From Escherichia coli (GTDB lineage: Bacteria; Pseudomonadota; Gammaproteobacteria; Enterobacterales; Enterobacteriaceae), in assembly GCF_003334785.1 (NCBI RefSeq), contig NZ_QOWV01000011.1: a DNA stretch of 64,000 nt, one strand, 5' to 3'. Shown here one piece after another: positions 1 through 59,936 of this stretch. Under the pieces are notes generated by a model, which worked only from the letters and a program-made list of their open reading frames with translations, searched no databases and had not been told where the DNA came from. Both the position numbers and the translations under genes were made by a program. Within the stretch, counting starts at the first letter, position 1. Every line of letters begins with the position of its first letter.

Positions 1-97
1 TTATCGTGAGAGTAATTCATCGGCACGTTAAATCATATCAGGCGTAATACCACAACCCTTAAGTTAGCGCTTATGGGGTTTTTCCCCACCGTTCAGG

Positions 98-492
98 GTG
101 TTCCCCGCGCCAGCGGGGATAAACCGGTCATCACGATGAATCAAAATTTCGCCCGGCTGTGTTCCCCGCGCCAGCGGGGATAAACCGCTTCTCCACCGTT
201 TGGCGAATCGGTGTGAGGGGTGTTCCCCGCGCCAGCGGGGATAAACCGATTGTTATAATTATTTATTGAAATATCATTCCGTGTTCCCCGCGCCAGCGGG
301 GATAAACCGAATCTATTGTGAATTTGAAATGGTCCAGCACTGTGTTCCCCGCGCCAGCGGGGATAAACCGGGTAAAAACACGGTCTGAACCGACATTCAT
401 GTGTGTTCCCCGCGTCAGCGGGGATAAACCGGGCGCACTGGATGCGATGATGGATATCACTTGGAGTTCCCCCGCCCCTGCGGTAGAACTCC
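98..492 (+). CRISPR. Type I-E CRISPR array: seven 29-bp direct repeats (GTGTTCCCCGCGCCAGCGGGGATAAACCG) starting at 98, 159, 220, 281, 342, 403 (one C>T change) and 464 (degenerate terminal repeat), with six 32-bp spacers
   Basis: Exact 61-bp periodicity read directly. Repeat has the palindromic CCCCGCG/CGCGGGG core and ATAAACCG handle of the E. coli I-E repeat. Degenerate last repeat abuts iap, so crRNA would read left to right on +. Confidence 0.95.
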
Positions 493-513
493 CAGCTCCC
501 ATTTTCAAACCCA

Positions 514-1551
514 TCAAGACGCCTTCGCCAGCTCCTTCACCAACGGTAGCATTATCCGCATAACGTCACGGCAGCGACGTTCTATTCTTCCAGGAAGTGC
601 CTTATCAATATGCTGTTGATTATCCAGTCTTACGTCATGCCAGCTATTTCCCGCAGGGAATGCGGCTGTTTTTGCGCGTTGCTGATAACCATCCTTATTC
701 CCAAGATTCCAGTTAGTCGCTTCCACCGAAAGTACAGCAATGCCCGCTTTGTCGAATATTTCTGCGTCATTACAACACCCAGTGCCTTTCGGATAATTTT
801 TATTCAAACCCGGATTGGTCGTTGCGGCTATTCCGTGACTGCGCGCAATTGCCAGCGCCCTGTCGCGCGTTAATTTCCTTACTGCTTCAGGGGTTTTTAC
901 ACCGCTGTTGAAATACAATTTATCGCCAACAATTAAGTTATCGAGATTAATCACCAGCAGCGTATTTTTCTTTTCGGTGTCACTCATCCGCTTGAGTAAA
1001 TTCTCAGCGCCTAATTTCCCTTCCTCTTCGCCGCTGGTCGCCACAAATCGAATACCATACTCGGTAGGCGTATTTTTCAGGCGTTCTGCCAATTCCAGCA
1101 TGACACCTAAACCTGCGGCGTTATCATCCATTCCTTGTAACGTCAGCCCGCCGAGATTGGCATCGGCGTCAGCATCGCTCAGCGGGGCGTAAGTATCCAG
1201 ATGCGCCATAATGATGATCTGCTGCGGCGCTTTGCCTTCATGAGCGGCAATCACCGTACTTCCTGTCACGTTATGCCAGTTCTTGCGATTATCGCGGGCG
1301 GTATAAATATACCGACTATTAAATGTCCGAATATCACTGCGATAACCCATTTGCTGAAACTGTTGGCGAATATAATCGGCAGATAACATTTCTGCTGGAG
1401 TTCCGGTCATGCGTCCCGGAAAGAAAGTAGCAATATGTCGTGCCTGGGTATTAGCAAAATCGCCAGGTTTAGGTGACGAGGCGTGTACGGGGAGAATAAA
1501 GCATACGCCGAGCGCTAGGGCAGCGGTACGGTGGCGCAATGCGGAAAACAT
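514..1551 (-). CDS. iap: Alkaline phosphatase isozyme conversion aminopeptidase (M28 family), 345 aa
   Basis: ORF begins MFSALRHRTAALALGVCFILPVHASS (signal peptide); classic position next to the CRISPR array and divergent from cysD. Confidence 0.93.
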   Translation of the reverse strand: MFSALRHRTAALALGVCFILPVHASSPKPGDFANTQARHIATFFPGRMTGTPAEMLSADYIRQQFQQMGYRSDIRTFNSRYIYTARDNRKNWHNVTGSTVIAAHEGKAPQQIIIMAHLDTYAPLSDADADANLGGLTLQGMDDNAAGLGVMLELAERLKNTPTEYGIRFVATSGEEEGKLGAENLLKRMSDTEKKNTLLVINLDNLIVGDKLYFNSGVKTPEAVRKLTRDRALAIARSHGIAATTNPGLNKNYPKGTGCCNDAEIFDKAGIAVLSVEATNWNLGNKDGYQQRAKTAAFPAGNSWHDVRLDNQQHIDKALPGRIERRCRDVMRIMLPLVKELAKAS

Positions 1552-1802
1552 AGTGAGTCCTTAAATACCATGCAAATTTTTTTACCGCCATAGTATGAAA
1601 CTGCCGCTGCGCTAAAACAATTTCAAATCTTCCTAAACGCCCGAAATCCGGTGCCTTAAGCACTTTTTGATATTAGCTTTGCCAAATCGTTATTCCGTTA
1701 AGGAACTACTCATTCTAATTGGTAATTTCATTCGTTCTCTTACGCTCCCTATAGTCGAAACATCTGATGGCAAGAAAATAGCGGTATTGCAAAGGAACGG
1801 TT

Positions 1803-2711
1803 ATGGATCAAATACGACTTACTCACCTGCGGCAACTGGAGGCGGAAAGCATCCACATTATTCGCGAGGTGGCGGCAGAATTCTCAAATCCGGTGATGCT
1901 CTACTCTATCGGTAAAGATTCCAGCGTCATGCTGCATCTGGCGCGCAAGGCGTTTTATCCAGGTACGCTGCCTTTCCCGTTGCTGCATGTCGATACCGGC
2001 TGGAAATTCCGCGAGATGTATGAGTTCCGCGATCGTACGGCGAAAGCCTACGGCTGCGAGCTGCTGGTGCATAAAAACCCGGAAGGCGTGGCGATGGGGA
2101 TTAATCCATTCGTGCACGGCAGCGCGAAACATACCGATATTATGAAAACTGAAGGCCTGAAACAGGCGCTGAACAAATACGGTTTTGATGCCGCCTTCGG
2201 TGGTGCGCGCCGTGACGAAGAGAAATCCCGCGCTAAAGAGCGAATCTACTCTTTCCGTGACCGCTTCCATCGCTGGGATCCGAAAAATCAGCGCCCAGAG
2301 CTGTGGCACAACTACAACGGGCAAATTAACAAAGGCGAAAGCATCCGCGTCTTCCCGCTCTCTAACTGGACCGAGCAGGATATCTGGCAATACATCTGGC
2401 TGGAAAATATCGACATTGTGCCGCTGTATCTCGCTGCGGAACGTCCGGTTCTGGAACGCGACGGTATGTTGATGATGATTGATGACAACCGTATCGACCT
2501 GCAACCGGGCGAAGTGATTAAAAAACGGATGGTGCGTTTCCGTACGCTGGGCTGCTGGCCGCTGACCGGTGCGGTGGAGTCAAATGCACAAACACTACCG
2601 GAGATCATCGAAGAGATGCTGGTTTCTACCACCAGTGAACGTCAGGGCCGCGTGATTGACCGCGACCAGGCGGGGTCTATGGAGCTGAAAAAACGTCAGG
2701 GGTATTTTTAA
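1803..2711 (+). CDS. cysD: Sulfate adenylyltransferase subunit 2, 302 aa
   Basis: Translation [27 protein letters not shown]...; PAPS-reductase-like fold; followed directly by cysN. Confidence 0.96.
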
Positions 2712-2712
2712 G

Positions 2713-4140
2713 ATGAACACCGCACTTGCACAACAAATCGCCAATGAAGGCGGCGTCGAAGCCTGGATGATTGCGCAACAACATAAAAGCCTGCTGCGTT
2801 TTCTGACCTGTGGTAGCGTCGATGACGGCAAAAGTACCCTGATTGGTCGCCTGCTGCACGATACCCGCCAAATCTACGAAGATCAGCTCTCATCGCTGCA
2901 TAACGACAGTAAACGTCACGGCACCCAGGGCGAAAAGCTGGATCTGGCACTGCTGGTGGACGGCCTGCAAGCTGAGCGCGAACAGGGCATCACCATTGAC
3001 GTGGCTTACCGCTATTTCTCTACCGAGAAGCGTAAATTTATTATCGCCGACACCCCAGGGCACGAGCAGTACACCCGCAATATGGCGACTGGCGCATCGA
3101 CATGTGAACTGGCGATCTTACTGATCGATGCCCGTAAAGGCGTGCTCGATCAAACCCGTCGTCACAGTTTTATCTCCACACTGTTGGGGATCAAACATCT
3201 GGTCGTGGCGATCAACAAAATGGATCTGGTGGATTACAGTGAAAAGACGTTCACCCGTATTCGTGAAGATTATCTGACCTTTGCCGGGCAGCTGCCGGGT
3301 AATCTGGATATCCGCTTTGTGCCGCTCTCTGCACTGGAAGGCGACAACGTGGCTTCGCAAAGTGAAAGTATGGCGTGGTACAGCGGTCCAACACTGCTCG
3401 AAGTGCTGGAAACCGTGGAGATCCAGCGAGTGGTGGATGCTCAGCCAATGCGCTTCCCGGTGCAGTACGTTAATCGCCCGAATCTCGATTTTCGTGGTTA
3501 CGCCGGAACGCTGGCATCCGGTCGCGTAGAAGTCGGGCAACGAGTCAAAGTGCTGCCCTCTGGTGTGGAATCAAACGTCGCCCGGATCGTGACTTTTGAT
3601 GGCGATCGCGAAGAAGCCTTTGCCGGAGAAGCGATCACCCTGGTGCTGACGGATGAGATCGACATCAGCCGTGGCGATCTGCTGCTGGCGGCAGACGAAG
3701 CGTTACCAGCTGTGCAGAGCGCGTCGGTGGATGTGGTATGGATGGCGGAACAGCCGCTTTCCCCGGGCCAGAGTTATGACATCAAAATTGCCGGTAAGAA
3801 GACGCGTGCTCGTGTTGATGGCATTCGTTATCAGGTTGATATTAATAACCTTACCCAACGCGAAGTTGAAAACCTGCCGCTGAACGGCATCGGCCTGGTG
3901 GATCTCACTTTTGACGAGCCACTGGTGTTAGATCGTTATCAGCAAAACCCGGTTACCGGTGGGCTGATTTTTATCGATCGCCTGAGCAATGTGACCGTAG
4001 GTGCCGGTATGGTGCATGAGCCAGTTAGCCAGGCAACTGCTGCGCCATCTGAATTTAGTGCATTCGAACTGGAATTGAATGCCCTGGTTCGCCGCCACTT
4101 TCCACACTGGGGCGCGCGCGATTTGCTGGGGGATAAATAA
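2713..4140 (+). CDS. cysN: Sulfate adenylyltransferase subunit 1 (GTPase), 475 aa
   Basis: GTP-binding motifs ([18 protein letters not shown]); starts 2 nt after the cysD stop. Confidence 0.96.
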
Positions 4141-4745
4141 TGGCGCTGCATGACGAAAACGTCGTCTGGCATAGCCATCCGGTCACTGTGCAACAACGCG
4201 AGCTACACCACGGTCATCGTGGTGTAGTGCTGTGGTTTACCGGCCTCTCCGGGTCCGGTAAATCAACGGTCGCCGGGGCGCTGGAGGAGGCGTTACATAA
4301 ACTCGGCGTCAGTACGTATCTGCTGGATGGCGATAATGTTCGCCACGGATTATGCAGCGATCTCGGTTTTAGCGATGCCGATCGTAAAGAGAATATCCGT
4401 CGCGTCGGTGAAGTGGCGAATTTGATGGTTGAAGCCGGACTGGTGGTGCTGACCGCATTTATCTCGCCACACCGCGCCGAACGCCAGATGGTTCGTGAAC
4501 GCGTAGGAGAAGGGCGCTTTATCGAAGTGTTTGTCGATACGCCGCTGGCGATTTGCGAAGCCCGCGATCCAAAAGGCTTATATAAGAAAGCGCGTGCCGG
4601 TGAACTGCGCTACTTTACGGGAATAGATTCCGTTTACGAAGCGCCTGAATCGGCAGAAATTCATCTCAATGGTGAACAATTAGTAACAAATTTGGTACAG
4701 CAATTATTAGATCTGTTGAGACAGAACGATATTATCAGATCCTGA
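4140..4745 (+). CDS. cysC: Adenylylsulfate (APS) kinase, 201 aa
   Basis: P-loop GLSGSGKST; start overlaps the cysN stop (TAATG), suggesting translational coupling. Confidence 0.96.
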
Positions 4746-4794
4746 GACACCACCGGGTTTCCATGCCCGGTTCGTCAAAGTAACAGGATCAAAT

Positions 4795-5118
4795 ATGCGT
4801 AATAGCCATAACATTACACTAACAAATAACGACAGCCTTACTGAGGATGAAGAAACCACATGGTCACTGCCTGGTGCCGTGGTCGGTTTTATCTCCTGGT
4901 TATTTGCGCTGGCGATGCCGATGTTGATTTATGGCTCTAACACGCTGTTCTTCTTTATCTACACCTGGCCTTTCTTTCTTGCGCTGATGCCCGTCGCGGT
5001 AGTGGTGGGGATTGCGCTGCATTCATTGATGGACGGAAAGCTACGCTACAGTATTGTTTTCACCCTGGTGACAGTAGGCATTATGTTTGGCGCACTGTTT
5101 ATGTGGCTACTGGGCTAA
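4795..5118 (+). CDS. ygbE: Small inner-membrane protein of unknown function (DUF3561-like), 107 aa
   Basis: Three predicted hydrophobic helices; conserved position between cysC and ftsB. Confidence 0.85.
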   Translation: MRNSHNITLTNNDSLTEDEETTWSLPGAVVGFISWLFALAMPMLIYGSNTLFFFIYTWPFFLALMPVAVVVGIALHSLMDGKLRYSIVFTLVTVGIMFGALFMWLLG

Positions 5119-5311
5119 TTTGTACTTTCCCGTCTCCTCTGTTCATAATTCAAACCGTAACTAATAATGAGATTATGTTCTGCACGCCCTGGGTATACGT
5201 AACAATGGACAAATGTGGTACATTTGCCCGCGTTGTCGCGGTATCCCCAACAGAGGATGTAGAGTCGTCTTCGGATGCATGGGATGATGATGCCGTTTTT
5301 CAGGGGGCAGG

Positions 5312-5623
5312 ATGGGTAAACTAACGCTGCTGTTGCTGGCTATTCTGGTCTGGCTACAGTATTCGCTGTGGTTCGGTAAGAACGGTATACATGACTATAC
5401 CCGCGTCAATGATGATGTGGCGGCACAGCAAGCTACAAACGCGAAACTTAAAGCGCGAAACGATCAACTTTTTGCCGAAATTGACGATCTCAATGGCGGC
5501 CAGGAGGCGCTCGAAGAGCGTGCGCGTAATGAACTCAGCATGACCAGGCCGGGCGAAACTTTTTATCGTCTGGTGCCTGACGCGTCGAAGCGCGCACAGT
5601 CTGCGGGGCAAAACAATCGATAA
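5312..5623 (+). CDS. ftsB: Cell division protein FtsB, 103 aa
   Basis: N-terminal TM helix plus coiled coil ([25 protein letters not shown]...). Confidence 0.95.
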
Positions 5624-5641
5624 ATCAGCCCGGGAATTAAC

Positions 5642-6352
5642 ATGGCAACCACTCATTTGGATGTTTGCGCCGTGGTTCCGGCGGCCGGATTTGGCCGTCG
5701 AATGCAAACGGAATGTCCTAAGCAATATCTCTCAATCGGTAATCAAACCATTCTTGAACACTCGGTGCATGCGCTGCTGGCGCATCCCCGGGTGAAACGA
5801 GTCGTCATTGCCATAAGTCCTGGCGATAGCCGTTTTGCACAACTTCCTCTGGCGAATCATCCGCAAATCACCGTTGTAGATGGCGGTGATGAGCGTGCCG
5901 ATTCCGTGCTGGCAGGTCTGAAAGCCGCTGGCGACGCGCAGTGGGTATTGGTGCATGACGCCGCTCGTCCTTGTTTGCATCAGGATGACCTCGCGCGATT
6001 GTTGGCGTTGAGCGAAACCAGCCGCACGGGGGGGATCCTCGCCGCACCAGTGCGCGATACTATGAAACGTGCCGAACCGGGCAAAAATGCCATTGCTCAT
6101 ACCGTTGATCGCAACGGCTTATGGCACGCGCTGACGCCGCAATTTTTCCCTCGTGAGCTGTTACATGACTGTCTGACGCGCGCTCTAAATGAAGGCGCGA
6201 CTATTACCGACGAAGCCTCGGCGCTGGAATATTGCGGATTCCATCCTCAGTTGGTCGAAGGCCGTGCGGATAACATTAAAGTCACGCGCCCGGAAGATTT
6301 GGCACTGGCCGAGTTTTACCTCACCCGAACCATCCATCAGGAGAATACATAA
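5642..6352 (+). CDS. ispD: 2-C-methyl-D-erythritol 4-phosphate cytidylyltransferase, 236 aa
   Basis: Translation [22 protein letters not shown]...; MEP pathway. Confidence 0.96.
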
Positions 6353-6831
6353 TGCGAATTGGACACGGTTTTGACGTACATGCCTTTGGCGGTGAAGGCC
6401 CAATTATCATTGGTGGCGTACGCATTCCTTACGAAAAAGGATTGCTGGCGCATTCTGATGGCGACGTGGCGCTCCATGCGTTGACCGATGCATTGCTTGG
6501 CGCGGCGGCGCTGGGGGATATCGGCAAGCTGTTCCCGGATACCGATCCGGCATTTAAAGGTGCCGATAGCCGCGAGCTGCTACGCGAAGCCTGGCGTCGT
6601 ATTCAGGCGAAGGGTTATACCCTTGGCAACGTCGATGTCACTATCATCGCTCAGGCACCGAAGATGTTGCCGCACATTCCACAAATGCGCGTGTTTATTG
6701 CCGAAGATCTCGGCTGCCATATGGATGATGTTAACGTGAAAGCCACTACTACGGAAAAACTGGGATTTACCGGACGTGGGGAAGGGATTGCCTGTGAAGC
6801 GGTGGCGCTACTCATTAAGGCAACAAAATGA
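6352..6831 (+). CDS. ispF: 2-C-methyl-D-erythritol 2,4-cyclodiphosphate synthase, 159 aa
   Basis: Translation [39 protein letters not shown]...; start overlaps the ispD stop. Confidence 0.96.
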
Positions 6832-10580: not shown

Positions 10581-11573
10581 ATGAGTCAGAATACGCTGAA
10601 AGTTCATGATTTAAATGAAGATGCGGAATTTGATGAGAACGGAGTTGAGGTTTTTGACGAAAAGGCCTTAGTAGAAGAGGAACCCAGTGATAACGATTTG
10701 GCCGAAGAGGAACTGTTATCGCAGGGAGCCACACAGCGTGTGTTGGACGCGACTCAGCTTTACCTTGGTGAGATTGGTTATTCACCACTGTTAACGGCCG
10801 AAGAAGAAGTTTATTTTGCGCGTCGCGCACTGCGTGGAGATGTCGCCTCTCGCCGCCGGATGATCGAGAGTAACTTGCGTCTGGTGGTAAAAATTGCCCG
10901 CCGTTATGGCAATCGTGGTCTGGCGTTGCTGGACCTTATCGAAGAGGGCAACCTGGGGCTGATCCGCGCGGTAGAGAAGTTTGACCCGGAACGTGGTTTC
11001 CGCTTCTCAACATACGCAACCTGGTGGATTCGCCAGACGATTGAACGGGCGATTATGAACCAAACCCGTACTATTCGTTTGCCGATTCACATCGTAAAGG
11101 AGCTGAACGTTTACCTGCGAACCGCACGTGAGTTGTCCCATAAGCTGGACCATGAACCAAGTGCGGAAGAGATCGCAGAGCAACTGGATAAGCCAGTTGA
11201 TGACGTCAGCCGTATGCTTCGTCTTAACGAGCGCATTACCTCGGTAGACACCCCGCTGGGTGGTGATTCCGAAAAAGCGTTGCTGGACATCCTGGCCGAT
11301 GAAAAAGAGAACGGTCCGGAAGATACCACGCAAGATGACGATATGAAGCAGAGCATCGTCAAATGGCTGTTCGAGCTGAACGCCAAACAGCGTGAAGTGC
11401 TGGCACGTCGATTCGGTTTGCTGGGGTACGAAGCGGCAACACTGGAAGATGTAGGTCGTGAAATTGGCCTCACCCGTGAACGTGTTCGCCAGATTCAGGT
11501 TGAAGGCCTGCGCCGTTTGCGTGAAATCCTGCAAACGCAGGGGCTGAATATCGAAGCGCTGTTCCGCGAGTAA
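10581..11573 (+). CDS. rpoS: RNA polymerase sigma factor sigma-S (sigma-38), 330 aa, intact
   Basis: Start set at the ATG giving [21 protein letters not shown]... (ORF track starts 36 nt upstream); sigma-70 family regions 2-4; codon 33 is GAG (Glu), no internal stop. Confidence 0.95.
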
Positions 11574-11588
11574 GTAAGCATCTGTCAG

Positions 11589-11620
11589 AAAGGCCAGTCT
11601 CAAGCGAGGCTGGCCTTTTC
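11589..11620 (+). terminator. Rho-independent terminator after rpoS (AGGCCAG...CTGGCCT stem plus T-run)
   Basis: Hairpin followed by TTTTC, read directly. Confidence 0.7.
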
Positions 11621-11629
11621 TGTGCACAA

Positions 11630-11660
11630 TAAAAGGTCCGATGCCCATCGGACCTTTTTA
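11630..11660. terminator. Bidirectional hairpin terminator between convergent rpoS and ygbN
   Basis: Stem GGTCCGATG/CATCGGACC flanked by A-run on one side and T-run on the other. Confidence 0.65.
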
Positions 11661-11666
11661 TTAAGG

Positions 11667-13031
11667 TCAAATTACCGCCCATACGCACCAGGTAATTAAG
11701 AATCCGGTAAAACCGAGAATGGTCGTTAACACTGTCCAGGTTTTCAGACCGTCTGCTACCGATAACCCCAGATATTTGGTCACAATCCAGAACCCTGAGT
11801 CATTAATATGTGACGCACCAAGCCCACCAAAGCAGGCTGCCAGCGTCACCAATACGCACTGAATCGGATTCAATCCCATCACCGCTTCTGAGAGTAACCC
11901 GCCGGTTGTCAGTATTGCTACGGTTGCTGACCCCTGCGATGCACGCAGCGCCAGTGAAATAATAAATGCGGCTGGTAACAGAGGCAGGTCAATCATTTGT
12001 AGCATGTTGGCAAGGGCTTTGCCGACGCCCGATTCCACCAGCACTTTGCCAAATACCCCTCCAGCACCAGTAACCAAAATCACTACCGCCGCAGTAGGAA
12101 GCGCTGAGCCCATAATGTCGCTGGTGTGTTGTAAGCTCCAGCCGCGACGTAAAGCCAATAACCAGAATGCCAGCACCAGCGCAATCATTAGAGCTACCAT
12201 TGGTGAGCCGATCAGCTGTAGCGTACCAAGCAGGGGATGCGAAGGCGGCATCAGTGTTGCGGAAACCGTACCCGCCATGATAATCGCGATAGGAATAACA
12301 ATTAGCGAGGTGACCAGCGCGACGCCCGGTGGATTTATTTTATCGCTTAATTTTGTCGCGCCTTCCTCACTGGCCGGAGCCAGTTGCATCTGTTCCAGTA
12401 CTTCTACTGACATCGCATATTGGCGCTTATTGATTATTTTCGCTGCAAAGTAGCCAACAACCCCTACGGGAATAGAAATCGCAATACCGATGATGGTTAG
12501 CCAGCCGATGTCTGCGTGGAGTAACCCCGCTGCGGCGACAGGGCCTGGATGCGGCGGTACCGCCACGTGAACAGTGAGCATGATCCCAGCGACAGGCAGG
12601 CCAAATTTGAGTGGCGATATTTTGGCAACCTTGGCAAAACCGTAAATGATTGGCGCAAGAATAATAAAGCCGACATCAAAGAAGACGGGAATACCGAGGA
12701 AGAACGCTGCCAGAGTCAGCGCAGCGATAGTTCGTTTGTCACCTAACTTGCGACTGAAATAATTAGCCAGTGACTCTGCACCACCAGAGTGTTCGATCAT
12801 ACGCCCCAGCATAGCGCCCAGACCAATAATAATAGTGACGGAACCAAGCACACCGCCCATCCCGGCGATCATCACTTTACCCACTTCGCCCGCCGGTATA
12901 CCCGCCGCAAGTGCGACTAACAGGCTGACGAGGAGCAGAGCAACGAATGGTTGTACCTTTGCCTTGATGACCAGCAGCAACAGCATGATTACGCCAGTTA
13001 ACGCAATGCATAACAATGTAATTGTGGACAT
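11667..13031 (-). CDS. ygbN: GntP-family (gluconate-type) permease, probable acid-sugar transporter, 454 aa
   Basis: Multi-TM GntP-like sequence; first gene of the convergent ygbNMLKJ block. Confidence 0.9.
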   Translation of the reverse strand: MSTITLLCIALTGVIMLLLLVIKAKVQPFVALLLVSLLVALAAGIPAGEVGKVMIAGMGGVLGSVTIIIGLGAMLGRMIEHSGGAESLANYFSRKLGDKRTIAALTLAAFFLGIPVFFDVGFIILAPIIYGFAKVAKISPLKFGLPVAGIMLTVHVAVPPHPGPVAAAGLLHADIGWLTIIGIAISIPVGVVGYFAAKIINKRQYAMSVEVLEQMQLAPASEEGATKLSDKINPPGVALVTSLIVIPIAIIMAGTVSATLMPPSHPLLGTLQLIGSPMVALMIALVLAFWLLALRRGWSLQHTSDIMGSALPTAAVVILVTGAGGVFGKVLVESGVGKALANMLQMIDLPLLPAAFIISLALRASQGSATVAILTTGGLLSEAVMGLNPIQCVLVTLAACFGGLGASHINDSGFWIVTKYLGLSVADGLKTWTVLTTILGFTGFLITWCVWAVI

Positions 13032-17716: not shown

Positions 17717-18373
17717 CTACTTTATTTTATAAAATGACAGCCGCCCGCTGTTCGGCGATCCGGTATCAATATAAATCTGGTTAGCGAACGTCTGAATGTT
17801 ATCAAACATCATATGTCCAAATATAAAATAATCAGCGCCGTTTATTTGTTGTAACTCGCCATTAAGCGATTTCTGCACACGATCAACAGGCCAGAGTAAT
17901 TCGCTCTCCGCTATTTCTTTACCAAAGAGATATTCACTCCCCGGATAATCTGCATGTGCGATGGCATATTTTATGTTGTCGTTAGTGATTTCAATAATAT
18001 GTGGAAGGTGATGGAATTTCAGCAACAGATCTATTGCCTCTTGTTGCTCTGAATCATTTAAATCGAAAAACCAGTCACCACCGCTGGCAAGCCACATATT
18101 GCCATCGCCAGTTTCGAATGCCTCAAGCGCCATCGCTTCGTGGTTGCCTTTAACCGACGTAAACCAGGGTTGGTTTAGCAGGCGCAGGACGTCAAGACTC
18201 TCCGGTCCACGATCAATATTATCGCCGACAGAAATAAGTAAGTCGATTTCGGGGAAAAAAGAGAGTTGATGTAAGCGGGATTGTAATAACTGATATTCAC
18301 CATGAATATCACCAACGACCCATATATGGCGATAGTGATGGGCATTGATTTTTTGATAGCGTGTAGATGGCAT
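17717..18373 (-). CDS. pphB: Serine/threonine protein phosphatase 2 (calcineurin-like metallophosphatase), 218 aa
   Basis: Metallophosphatase motifs GDIHG, GDNIDRG, GNHE. Confidence 0.93.
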   Translation of the reverse strand: MPSTRYQKINAHHYRHIWVVGDIHGEYQLLQSRLHQLSFFPEIDLLISVGDNIDRGPESLDVLRLLNQPWFTSVKGNHEAMALEAFETGDGNMWLASGGDWFFDLNDSEQQEAIDLLLKFHHLPHIIEITNDNIKYAIAHADYPGSEYLFGKEIAESELLWPVDRVQKSLNGELQQINGADYFIFGHMMFDNIQTFANQIYIDTGSPNSGRLSFYKIK

Positions 18374-18478
18374 GGTTTTACCCTGTAAAATAAGCTTTCC
18401 TATTATACAGGGTGTTTTTATTTTATTCGTCAGTTGTCGTTAATATTCCCGATAGCAAAAGACTATCGGGAATTGTTA

Positions 18479-21040
18479 TTACACCAGGCTCTTCAAGCGA
18501 TAAATCCACTCCAGCGCCTGACGCGGGGTGAGTGAATCCGGATCAAGATTTTCCAGAGCTTCGACCGCAGGCGAAGTTTCTTCTGGTACTGACAGCAAAG
18601 ACATTTGCGTACCATCCACTTGCGTAGCGGCGGCGTTCGGCGAAATGCTTTCCAGCTCACGCAGCTTTTGCCGTGCGCGCTTAATAACCTCTTTTGGCAC
18701 GCCTGCCAGAGCTGCAACCGCCAGGCCGTAGCTTTTGCTCGCCGCGCCATCCTGCACGCTGTGCATAAAGGCAATGGTGTCGCCGTGCTCCAGTGCATCG
18801 AGATGCACGTTAGCGACGCCTTCCATTTTCTCCGGTAACTGGGTCAGCTCGAAATAGTGGGTAGCAAATAACGTCAATGCCTTAATCTTATTCGCCAGAT
18901 TTTCCGCGCACGCCCACGCCAGCGACAGACCATCGTAGGTGGACGTTCCACGCCCGATCTCATCCATTAACACCAGACTGTATTCGGTGGCGTTATGTAA
19001 AATATTGGCGGTTTCAGTCATCTCCACCATAAAGGTTGAGCGCCCGGACGCCAGGTCATCTGCCGCGCCTACGCGGGTAAAGATGCGATCGATAGGTCCA
19101 ATCTCGACTTTTTGTGCCGGTACATAGCTGCCGATGTAGGCCATCAGCGCAATCAGTGCGGTCTGGCGCATATAGGTACTTTTACCGCCCATGTTCGGAC
19201 CGGTGATGATCAACATGCGGCGCTGCGGCGACAGATTCAGCGGGTTGGCGATAAATGGCTCATTCAGTACTTGTTCAACTACCGGATGGCGACCTTCGGT
19301 AATGCGAATGCCCGGTTTATCAATGAAGGTCGGGCAGGTGTAGTTCAGGGTATAGGCCCGTTCCGCCAGGTTAACCAGCACGTCGAGTTCCGCCAGCGCG
19401 CTCGCGCTCTGTTGCAACGCTTCCAGATGCGGCAACAGCAGGTCGAACAGCTCTTCATAAAGCTGTTTTTCCAGTGCCAGTGCTTTGCCTTTTGAGGTGA
19501 GAACTTTATCTTCGTACTCTTTTAGCTCTGGAATGATGTAGCGCTCGGCGTTTTTCAGCGTCTGGCGACGCATGTAGTTGATGGGTGCCAGATGGCTTTG
19601 CCCACGGCTGATTTGAATGTAGTAGCCGTGCACCGCATTAAAGCCAACTTTCAGCGTGTCCAGGCCGGTACGTTCACGCTCGCGGACTTCCAGACGCTCC
19701 AGATAATCGGTCGCGCCGTCAGCCAGCGCGCGCCACTCATCCAGCTCTTCGTTATAGCCCGATGCGATAACACCACCGTCGCGTACCAGCACCGGCGGTG
19801 TGTCGATGATTGCTCGCTCCAGCAGATCGCGCAGCTCGGCAAACTCGCCCATCTTCTCACGTAGCGCCTGTACCGGTGCACTATCGACAGTTTCTAACTG
19901 CGCACGCAGCTCCGGCAGTTGCTGGAAAGCGTGGCGCATACGGGCCAGATCGCGTGGGCGAGCAGTTCGTAAAGCCAGACGTGCCAGAATACGTTCCAGG
20001 TCGCCGACCTGACGCAGTACCGGCTGTAGCCCGGCGGTGAAATCCTGCAATGCGCCAATAGTTTGCTGGCGCTCAAGCAACACGCGGGTATCGCGCACTG
20101 GCATATGCAGCCAGCGTTTCAGCATACGGCTGCCCATCGGCGTGACGGTGCAGTCGAGCACAGAAGCCAGCGTATTTTCCGCACCACCCGCCAGGTTCTG
20201 GGTGATTTCCAGATTACGACGCGTCGCGGCATCCATAATGATGCTGTCCTGCTCACGTTCCATGGTGATGGAACGAATATGCGGCAGAGTCGTACGTTGG
20301 GTATCTTTCGCATACTGCAACAGACAACCGGCAGCACAAAGTCCGCGCGGCGCGTTCTCGACGCCAAAACCGACCAGATCGCGGGTCCCAAATTGCAGAT
20401 TCAACTGCTGGCGCGCGGTGTCGATTTCAAACTCCCACAGCGGGCGACGGCGCAGGCCGCGACGGCCTTCAATTAACGACATTTCAGCAAAATCTTCTGC
20501 ATACAGCAGTTCCGCAGGATTAGTGCGTTGCAGTTCTGCCGCCATCGTTTCGCGGTCAGCCGGTTCGCTCAGGCGAAAACGCCCGGAACTGATATCCAGC
20601 GTCGCGTAGCCGAAACCTTTGCTGTCCTGCCAGATAGCCGCCAGCAGGTTGTCCTGACGCTCCTGCAACAGGGCTTCATCGCTGATGGTGCCTGGCGTAA
20701 CGATACGCACAACTTTGCGCTCAACCGGACCTTTGCTGGTCGCCGGATCGCCAATTTGTTCGCAGATGGCAACGGACTCTCCCTGATTCACCAGTTTGGC
20801 GAGATAGTTTTCCACCGCATGGTAGGGAATCCCCGCCATCGGGATCGGCTCTCCCGCCGAAGCACCGCGTTTGGTCAGTGAAATATCCAGCAGTTGCGAC
20901 GCGCGTTTTGCGTCGTCATAAAACAGTTCATAAAAATCACCCATCCGGTAAAACAGCAGGATCTCGGGATGCTGGGCTTTCAGCCTGAGATACTGCTGCA
21001 TCATGGGCGTATGGGCGTCGAAATTTTCTATTGCACTCAT
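18479..21040 (-). CDS. mutS: DNA mismatch repair protein MutS, 853 aa
   Basis: Full-length ORF with Walker [10 protein letters not shown] and C-terminal domain; begins [40 protein letters not shown]. Confidence 0.97.
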
Positions 21041-59425: not shown

Positions 59426-59488
59426 GTGCGCCACGCAGCGACGATGAGCGATAAACAAGTTCTTCGAAGCACTCGTAAGAGGCGTGTG

Positions 59489-59581
59489 GTGAGGTGGCCG
59501 AGAGGCTGAAGGCGCTCCCCTGCTAAGGGAGTATGCGGTCAAAAGCTGCATCCGGGGTTCGAATCCCCGCCTCACCGCCAT
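59489..59581 (+). tRNA. serV: tRNA-Ser (anticodon GCU), 93 nt with CCA end
   Basis: GGTGAGGTGGCCGAGAGG...GGTTCGAATCCCCGCCTCACCGCCA; long variable arm; anticodon loop CTGCTAA. Confidence 0.95.
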
Positions 59582-59584
59582 TTG

Positions 59585-59661
59585 CATCCGTAGCTCAGCT
59601 GGATAGAGTACTCGGCTACGAACCGAGCGGTCGGAGGTTCGAATCCTCCCGGATGCACCAT
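59585..59661 (+). tRNA. argV: tRNA-Arg (anticodon ACG), 77 nt with CCA end
   Basis: GCATCCGTAGCTCAGCTGGATAGAGTACTCGGCTACGAACCGAGCGGTCGGAGGTTCGAATCCTCCCGGATGCACCA; gene symbol is positional. Confidence 0.95.
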
Positions 59662-59777
59662 ATTCTCCGAAATCTTCAGCAATGAAGGTATCGAAGAGGT
59701 AGCGGAATTAACCGCAGGCACTAGGGATGATAACGTTGCTTTAGCAACGGCCCGAAGGGCGAGCCGCAAGGCGAGTA

Positions 59778-59796
59778 ATCCTCCCGGATGCACCAT
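59778..59796 (+). repeat. Truncated pseudo-copy of the tRNA-Arg 3' end (AATCCTCCCGGATGCACCA) inside the inter-tRNA spacer
   Basis: 19-nt exact match to the tRNA-Arg 3' end, preceded by a CGTTGC-TTTA-GCAACG hairpin. Confidence 0.8.
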
Positions 59797-59859
59797 CTCT
59801 TAATTGATATGGCTTTAGTAGCGGTATCAATATCAGCAGTAGAATAAGTTTTCCCGATG

Positions 59860-59936
59860 CATCCGTAGCTCAGCTGGATAGAGTACTCGGCTACGAACCG
59901 AGCGGTCGGAGGTTCGAATCCTCCCGGATGCACCAT
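59860..59936 (+). tRNA. tRNA-Arg (anticodon ACG), second identical copy
   Basis: Identical 77-nt sequence, 275 bp after the first copy. Confidence 0.95.

Follow-up and report, generated by a model that had tools for sequence, protein, structure and literature searches.

Almendros et al. (2014; mBio 5:e00767-13, PMC3903273) classified the arrangements of the CRISPR-I locus. They proposed that IS186 inserted at the GC-rich IG2/IG3 boundary and also in the array, and that these "equivalent IS elements" recombined. Recombination removes cas-E1 together with the L1 leader and shortens the array, and the product is their arrangement G, which also lacks IG3. The stage with two IS elements was a hypothetical intermediate (AH1/AH2). 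Yosef et al. (2012; PMC3384332) found that an array of BL21-AI without a conserved leader gained 0 spacers when Cas1 and Cas2 were overexpressed, and that acquisition needs at least 60 bp of leader. In E. coli B, the 14 repeats that they gave for "array I" are found at queE-ygcE, so we identify their leaderless "array II" with the array on the iap side.

We analysed a stretch of 64,000 nucleotides from Escherichia coli contig NZ_QOWV01000011.1 (RefSeq assembly GCF_003334785.1), which we will call the window. At its left end (Table 1), positions 76-492 are very probably (roughly 93%, by our estimate) a non-functional remnant of the CRISPR-I (CRISPR2.1) array, whose leader and cas genes were lost by an IS186-mediated deletion. 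The locus is common and already known, as it matches the published E. coli B/BL21 locus and arrangement G. It is a textbook case of the loss of CRISPR-Cas via insertion sequences, and it holds little new biology. What we can add is that, for the route of Almendros et al., the RefSeq complete genomes now hold both the one-IS stage (in A14) and the two-IS stage (in HSP425).

Table 1. Features at the left end of the window, by position in the window.
Feature	Position	Strand	Remark
IS186 right end (IS186/IS421 family), cut by window edge	1-75	-	exact match to FORC 064
Spacer remnant, last 22 nt of the 32-nt ancestral spacer AGTTAAGAGGGGGTTTTTCCCCACCGTTCAGG	76-97	+	intact in A14, NCTC9041, C11
Repeat 1	98-126	+	exact consensus
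Spacer 1	127-158	+	= A14 spacer 16
Repeat 2	159-187	+	
Spacer 2	188-219	+	IncF-type plasmid protospacer
Repeat 3	220-248	+	
Spacer 3	249-280	+	AT-rich; also in strain 774 (cas-E1)
Repeat 4	281-309	+	
Spacer 4	310-341	+	
Repeat 5	342-370	+	
Spacer 5	371-402	+	P1/P7-like phage-plasmid protospacer
Repeat 6	403-431	+	C>T at 415
Spacer 6	432-463	+	oldest spacer
Degenerate terminal repeat	464-492	+	
iap (alkaline phosphatase isozyme conversion aminopeptidase gene)	514-1551	-	convergent with array

The first-pass annotation, which was made from the window's sequence, described a type I-E array with six 32-nt spacers, and the array is real. The 29-nt repeat GTGTTCCCCGCGCCAGCGGGGATAAACCG is found exactly in repeats 1 to 5 and with one mismatch in repeat 6, at a constant period of 61 nt. 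There were 0 matches to the repeat in 100 dinucleotide-preserving shuffles and 0 further copies elsewhere in the 64-kb window. The repeats fit the type I-E (E. coli CRISPR2) consensus, G(A/T)GTTCCCCGCGCCAGCGGGGATAAACCG, and the six spacers are unique and have the expected length (32–33 nt). The degenerate terminal repeat, GAGTTCCCCCGCCCCTGCGGTAGAACTCC, differs from the consensus at 13 of 29 positions (ungapped) and is the same as the terminal repeat of the K-12 array except for 1 base. It was said to abut the stop codon of iap (514-516, minus strand), but 21 nt lie between them. The trailer side of the CRISPR-I locus is fixed, and iap marks it. We set the identity of the repeat by direct comparison with K-12. 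(Rfam was uninformative: over positions 1–2000, with E ≤ 1, it returned only a chance match to HgcF and no CRISPR repeat family.) Open reading frames of 40–84 amino acids within 263-563, on both strands (minus-strand 263-517 and plus-strand 318-563, for instance), are artefacts of the repeat frame and not genes.

The C>T change in repeat 6 had been placed in the stem of the repeat, with the suggestion that it might weaken recognition by Cas6e. The first point fails, and the predicted fold speaks against the second. In that fold, the repeat is a 7-bp stem capped by a GCCA tetraloop, which is the hairpin that Cas6e recognises, and position 415 is the second base of the tetraloop (GCCA → GUCA). 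The 415T variant and the consensus have an identical predicted 7-bp stem, and both are at −15.2 kcal/mol. The 415T variant is also found in A14, NCTC9041, and HSP425, and the trailing repeats of K-12 have comparable loop changes. It is a harmless change in the loop, which the intact array of the ancestor already had.

Upstream of the first repeat, there is no leader. The 97 bp there consist of the end of an IS186 element (1-75) and the remnant of a spacer (76-97). The 23-bp terminal inverted repeat of IS186 lies at 53-75, and the start codon of the transposase lies at 18-20 on the minus strand (product MNYSHD...). The full element can be seen in FORC 064, which is the closest genome that we examined. 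It has the hallmarks of IS186: a 1.34-kb element, 23-bp inverted repeats starting with CATAAGCGCTAAC, and the InsL transposase. It is 1339 bp long, is identical to IS186A of K-12 at 1339/1339 positions, and is annotated with an IS421-family transposase. The K-12 element, which lies between dnaJ and hokC, also resembles ours in having a hairpin-like target of the form GGGG(N5-6)CCCC; but it has an 11-bp duplication, while the flanks at this locus are unrelated. (The 18 nt at 76-93 resemble the sequence that flanks IS186A at hokC, which reflects the target preference of the IS and not a common origin.) The window edge thus truncates IS186 and not the array, which the first-pass annotation had called edge-truncated; the array ends at the IS186 junction (75/76), inside the window.

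We also considered that 76-97 might be the repeat-proximal end of a leader. However, it matches neither L2 (...CTTTTAGA, from K-12) nor L1 (...ATGCTTAGT, from cas-E1 strains). No AT-rich leader with a promoter and an integration site precedes repeat 1, and no sigma-70-like promoter was predicted on the plus strand before it (a consensus scan, which is weak evidence of absence). No cas3-casABCDE-cas1-cas2 operon is present in the window, as had been noted.

The spacer that 76-97 derives from was found with a 40-nt query across the junction, which we searched against the complete genomes of E. coli. (Its intact form was not found in two metagenome scans.) In A14 and NCTC9041, the window's six spacers are the last six of 21–22, in the same order, and the preceding spacer is intact. 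Positions 76–2075 of the window match A14 with 0 mismatches, and the match begins within spacer 15 of A14. So the first-pass suggestion that this was the distal end of a longer array was right, in the historical sense. Its other suggestion, that the array is an orphan remnant, is the right reading too. The comparison of spacer order with typed arrays, which it had asked for, identified the distal six of A14/NCTC9041, and spacer 6 is shared with K-12 as well.

Besides spacer 6, A14 and NCTC9041 (with cas-E1) and K-12 (with cas-E2) share with the window the repeat, the 61-nt period, the terminal repeat, and the adjacency to iap. They differ in having an L1 or L2 leader and cas genes immediately upstream and 12–22 spacers, while the window has no leader or cas genes and six spacers.

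Three genomes show how the window's locus could have formed. In A14, the order is cysH, hok, IS186, cas3...cas2 (the E1 variant), the L1 leader, 21 spacers, and iap, and the IS186 sits in the hok terminator with a 10-bp duplication, GGGTAAAACC. HSP425 has two co-oriented copies of IS186: copy 1 sits at hok and is flanked by the GGGTAAAACC duplication, and copy 2 is in spacer 15 with the duplication GGGTTTTTCC. The two copies enclose the cas genes together with the leader and 15 repeats. In FORC 064, a single 1339-bp IS has GGGTAAAACC on its left (the flank of copy 1) and GGGTTTTTCC on its right (the flank of copy 2), with no target duplication. Positions 76-85 of the window are GGGTTTTTCC, the surviving copy of the target-site duplication; in HSP425 and in ES4, this sequence flanks the IS on each side. 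Simple insertions of IS186 leave duplications of 10–11 bp (11 bp at hokC and 10 bp in A14, for example). The targets at both flanks of this locus are GC-rich and of the GGGG(N)CCCC type, and the duplications are present in A14 and HSP425 and absent from the recombinant. The lack of a target duplication, together with unrelated flanks, is the signature of a deletion. The span that is missing from the window's type of locus is 8,653 bp, in A14 coordinates.

Because the single IS combines the left flank of copy 1 with the right flank of copy 2, without a duplication, we propose that two copies of IS186 recombined. The ancestor would have had the order cysH, hok/sok, cas3-casABCDE-cas1-cas2 (E1), L1 leader, about 21 spacers, and iap. 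A first IS186 would have inserted into the GC-rich terminator of hok. A second, in the same orientation, would then have entered the spacer that is number seven counting from the trailer, at its GGGGGTTTTTCCCC motif. Homologous recombination of one copy with the other would have deleted the 8,653 bp, and with them every cas gene, the leader, and 14 spacers plus 10 nt. This would leave one IS186 abutting the 22-nt remnant of a spacer, followed by the six oldest spacers.

Could a single event have produced the locus instead? A copy on the hok side might have transposed within the molecule into spacer 15 and deleted the adjacent DNA, so that two copies never coexisted. A14-type genomes carry the IS on the hok side only, and the retained left junction with a new right junction at a GGGG(N)CCCC target is the product expected of an adjacent deletion. 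However, two co-oriented copies with their own 10-bp duplications do exist, so the substrate for recombination is real. Furthermore, elements of the IS4 family move by cut-and-paste transposition, and adjacent deletions are not readily produced from a single such element. The preference of Almendros et al. (PMC3903273) is also for recombination. The two routes would give the same product and would be indistinguishable by sequence; we consider the one-step deletion to be the less likely of them, and unlikely in its own right.

The window stops 75 bp into the IS, so what lies to the left of the element is outside it. The first-pass annotation had proposed to look there for a leader and a cas operon, but the relatives point the other way. 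FORC 064, E. coli B ATCC 11303, and strain 300709 all have the order cysH, hok, IS186, array, iap, with no leader or cas gene, and the left side of the window's locus is probably the same (IS186, hok, and cysH). JMF1 has the core of this arrangement (hok-IS186-array-iap), without cas genes there, and with other IS elements in place of cysH. In the reverse-complement view, the sequence to the left of the IS would be GGTTTTACCCCCGCGTGGTGG and then hok (whose 3' end is ...GGTTTTACCCCCGCGTGGTGGCTACTTCTTCG) in the deletion type, and it would be GGAAAAACCCCCTCTTAACT and then a repeat if IS186 had simply inserted.

A simple insertion would leave the locus complete: to the left of the IS would come what remains of spacer 15, another 14 spacers, the leader, and cas-E1. 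Three complete genomes that share the right junction are built in just this way. In these genomes (HSP425, ES4, and NZ_OZ547038.1), the array, the leader, and the cas genes persist upstream of the IS. But the predicted left junction of an IS186 in spacer 15 (87 nt) has a full-length 100% match in only these 3 genomes, against 299 with the right junction, or about 1%. The window also has just 1 mismatch in 14,560 bp (99.99% identity) to FORC 064, which is of the deletion type, and is collinear with it over the whole ~64 kb. However, HSP425 is almost as close to the window, with 2 differences in 11,707 compared bases. Identity of sequence therefore cannot tell simple insertion from deletion, and the argument is one of frequency. 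And even with a simple insertion, 1.3 kb of IS would still separate the distal six spacers from the promoter in the leader. We consider a simple insertion to be very improbable.

The 40-nt query across the junction matched 308 of 5,426 complete E. coli genomes, of which 299 have the IS junction and 9, A14 and NCTC9041 among them, do not have the IS there. (Earlier junction queries gave 280 versus 328 genomes. The shorter one admitted partial matches, so we replaced them with the 40-nt query and a 93-nt query.) The junction is thus in about 5.5% of complete genomes, and its carriers include BL21(DE3), B, C, and ATCC 8739. The 1-560 segment is 100% identical in many complete genomes (FORC 064 is one), where it is annotated with an IS421-family transposase, a CRISPR, and iap, so the spacers are not strain-specific, although they had been called the most strain-specific information in the window. 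In practice, the locus is useful as a strain marker: it places the genome with a lineage that lacks cas-E, shares this junction, and includes B, C, and ATCC 8739.

With the 93-nt query, which covers the junction, repeat 1, and spacer 1, we found spacer 1 directly after the first repeat in 274 of 312 genomes. The exceptions that we examined had only lost spacers. We also compared eight arrays that have the junction and lack cas genes (from the window, FORC 064, E. coli B, 300709, JMF1, ETEC4090, ET846, and NT1N31). These have 1–6 canonical repeats (with at most 6 mismatches to the consensus), and all eight are ordered subsets of spacers 16–21 of A14. None of the eight has a new spacer.

The closest of the described loci are nearly the same as ours. 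The iap-side array of E. coli B, BL21(DE3), and BL21-AI has the identical junction of IS186, spacer remnant, and first repeat, and has spacers 1–4 and 6. The array of E. coli B differs by the loss of spacer 5, by one SNP in spacer 1, and by one in repeat 4; on this comparison, the window keeps the fuller version, with six spacers. The likeness to arrangement G is that hok/sok is kept (in the window's genome, presumably to the left of the window), that IS186 is at the IG2/IG3 boundary on the hok side, that IG3, cas-E1, and L1 are gone, and that CRISPR2.1 is shortened. There is no substantive difference in the features stated in the text of that paper, and its proposed origin, by recombination of two IS186 copies, is also the one that we favour.

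What can such a stump do? Since it lacks a leader, an integration site, and Cas1-2, it cannot acquire spacers. Since an array promoter, Cas6e, Cascade, and Cas3 are also absent, it should make no crRNA and cause no interference; that is, we expect the array to be silent. Native type I-E immunity is not expected in the window's genome. The stump can change only by decay, through deletions between repeats.

We also considered that the stump might be maintained as a functional orphan array, either because of read-through from IS186 or hok with cas genes that act in trans from elsewhere or were acquired later, or because of some regulatory role outside of immunity. It is kept in about 5% of complete genomes, present-day IncF plasmids and P1/P7-like phage-plasmids hold targets of two of its spacers (2 and 5), and Almendros et al. 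(PMC3903273) documented the exchange of cas modules in E. coli. However, the sampled copies have shed spacers in varied combinations (with 1, 3, 4, or 5 canonical repeats remaining), which argues against selection on the content. Also, no gain of a spacer is seen in the sampled copies, the locus is devoid of cas-E genes, and the equivalent array of BL21-AI acquired no spacers. This explanation seems extremely unlikely to us.

On the side of the hok gene, IS186 splits a terminator-like hairpin, GCGGGGGTAAAACCCCGC, at the left junction of the IS (12716-12745 of the extracted region, which is outside the window). Transcription of hok might therefore enter IS186, where it would be antisense to the transposase gene, and proceed in the direction of the array. 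If the stump were transcribed, then a horizontally re-acquired cas module could, in principle, process its RNA.

To identify the targets of the spacers, we compared them to phages and plasmids and to the window itself. The search that the first-pass annotation had recommended was productive for two of the six. Spacer 2 matches a gene for a TIR-domain protein on conjugative, IncF-type plasmids. The match is 32/32 in plasmids from E. coli, and the alignment covers 37 nt of the concatenated query; over the same 37 nt, there are two mismatches in plasmids from Klebsiella and Enterobacter. The 5' flank of this protospacer is AAG (...ACAAG|CTTCTCC). The target gene (3575-4279 of the IncFIB/FIC plasmid region from E. 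coli 2014C-3075) is conserved on over 100 large plasmids of Klebsiella, Enterobacter, and E. coli. The target of spacer 5 is in lxr/upf94.2, a gene of P1/P7-like phage-plasmids; P7 (1489-1533 of the extract), SJ46, and IncY plasmids match at 33/33 positions and have CTG as the flank. In P1, there are 4 mismatches, and the flank is ATG.

The acquisition motif for the I-E variant that is not of the K12 type is CWT, or AWG on the spacer strand (PMC3737337). AAG (for spacer 2) and ATG (for spacer 5 in P1) fit this motif, but CTG (in P7 and the IncY plasmids) does not. The pattern for spacer 5 is compatible with escape by mutation of the PAM or with acquisition from a variant that is not in our sample.

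Spacer 6 is the last spacer of the CRISPR-I array of K-12, and at E ≤ 1 it matched only copies of the array itself in chromosome-sized records. Spacers 1, 3, and 4 and the 22-nt remnant had no phage or plasmid match at E ≤ 1. Spacers 3–6 are common to strain 774, which has cas-E1. In the 64-kb window, no spacer has a second match with up to 30% mismatches.

The matches of spacers 2 and 5 raise the idea of a dormant immune memory, which could be used if cas-E were re-acquired or if Cascade and Cas3 were supplied in trans. It would need read-through of the array from hok or IS186, and it would be directed at IncF plasmids and P1/P7-like phage-plasmids. Then the CTG at the target of spacer 5 in P7 and IncY plasmids, versus the ATG in P1, would be the fossil of a past escape at the PAM. 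We give this a very small chance of being correct.

Several of the other genomes have variations of their own. FORC 064 keeps a second I-E array, at queE-ygcE, despite having no cas-E genes at the iap locus. That array has a leader and 7 repeats (18,103–18,497 of the extracted region from FORC 064, 18 kb left of the window's start). In ETEC4090 and ET846 (1-932), the IS186 at the junction with the spacer remnant is reversed, with the opposite inverted-repeat end abutting GGGTTTTTCC, and its transposase is annotated as frameshifted. This orientation suggests an inversion between copies of IS186 after the deletion.

The cas-E1 genes have decayed in genomes of the precursor type. A14 and NCTC9041 have a deletion of the cas3 3' end and the casA 5' end (A14 3532-6814), and HSP425 has a deletion from casA to cas2e (11398-12042). 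Loss of function may precede the loss of the complete locus. NCTC9041 (1-3470) also has ygcE, instead of hok, on the other side of the IS186 that is upstream of cas3. This is a further rearrangement associated with IS186, which removed or relocated the interval from ygcE to cysH, including cysJIH.

In strain 774 (10600-11939) and ES4 (11060-12268), the IS10-like element ISVsa5 is in the L1 leader, just before the first repeat, and the loci are otherwise cas-positive; this is another route by which an IS silences the array. In C11 (84-1613), the sole cas annotation upstream of the array is a truncated cas3'' fragment, and spacer 15 is intact. The first repeat is at 1280, the 110 nt preceding it are not the L1 leader, and no IS is annotated in the stretch that we examined. 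This looks like an independent deletion.

At the other end of the window (59488-59932), a tRNA-Ser gene is followed by only two tandem tRNA-Arg genes. FORC 064 has four at this position, downstream of csrA; the difference is one of tandem copy number.
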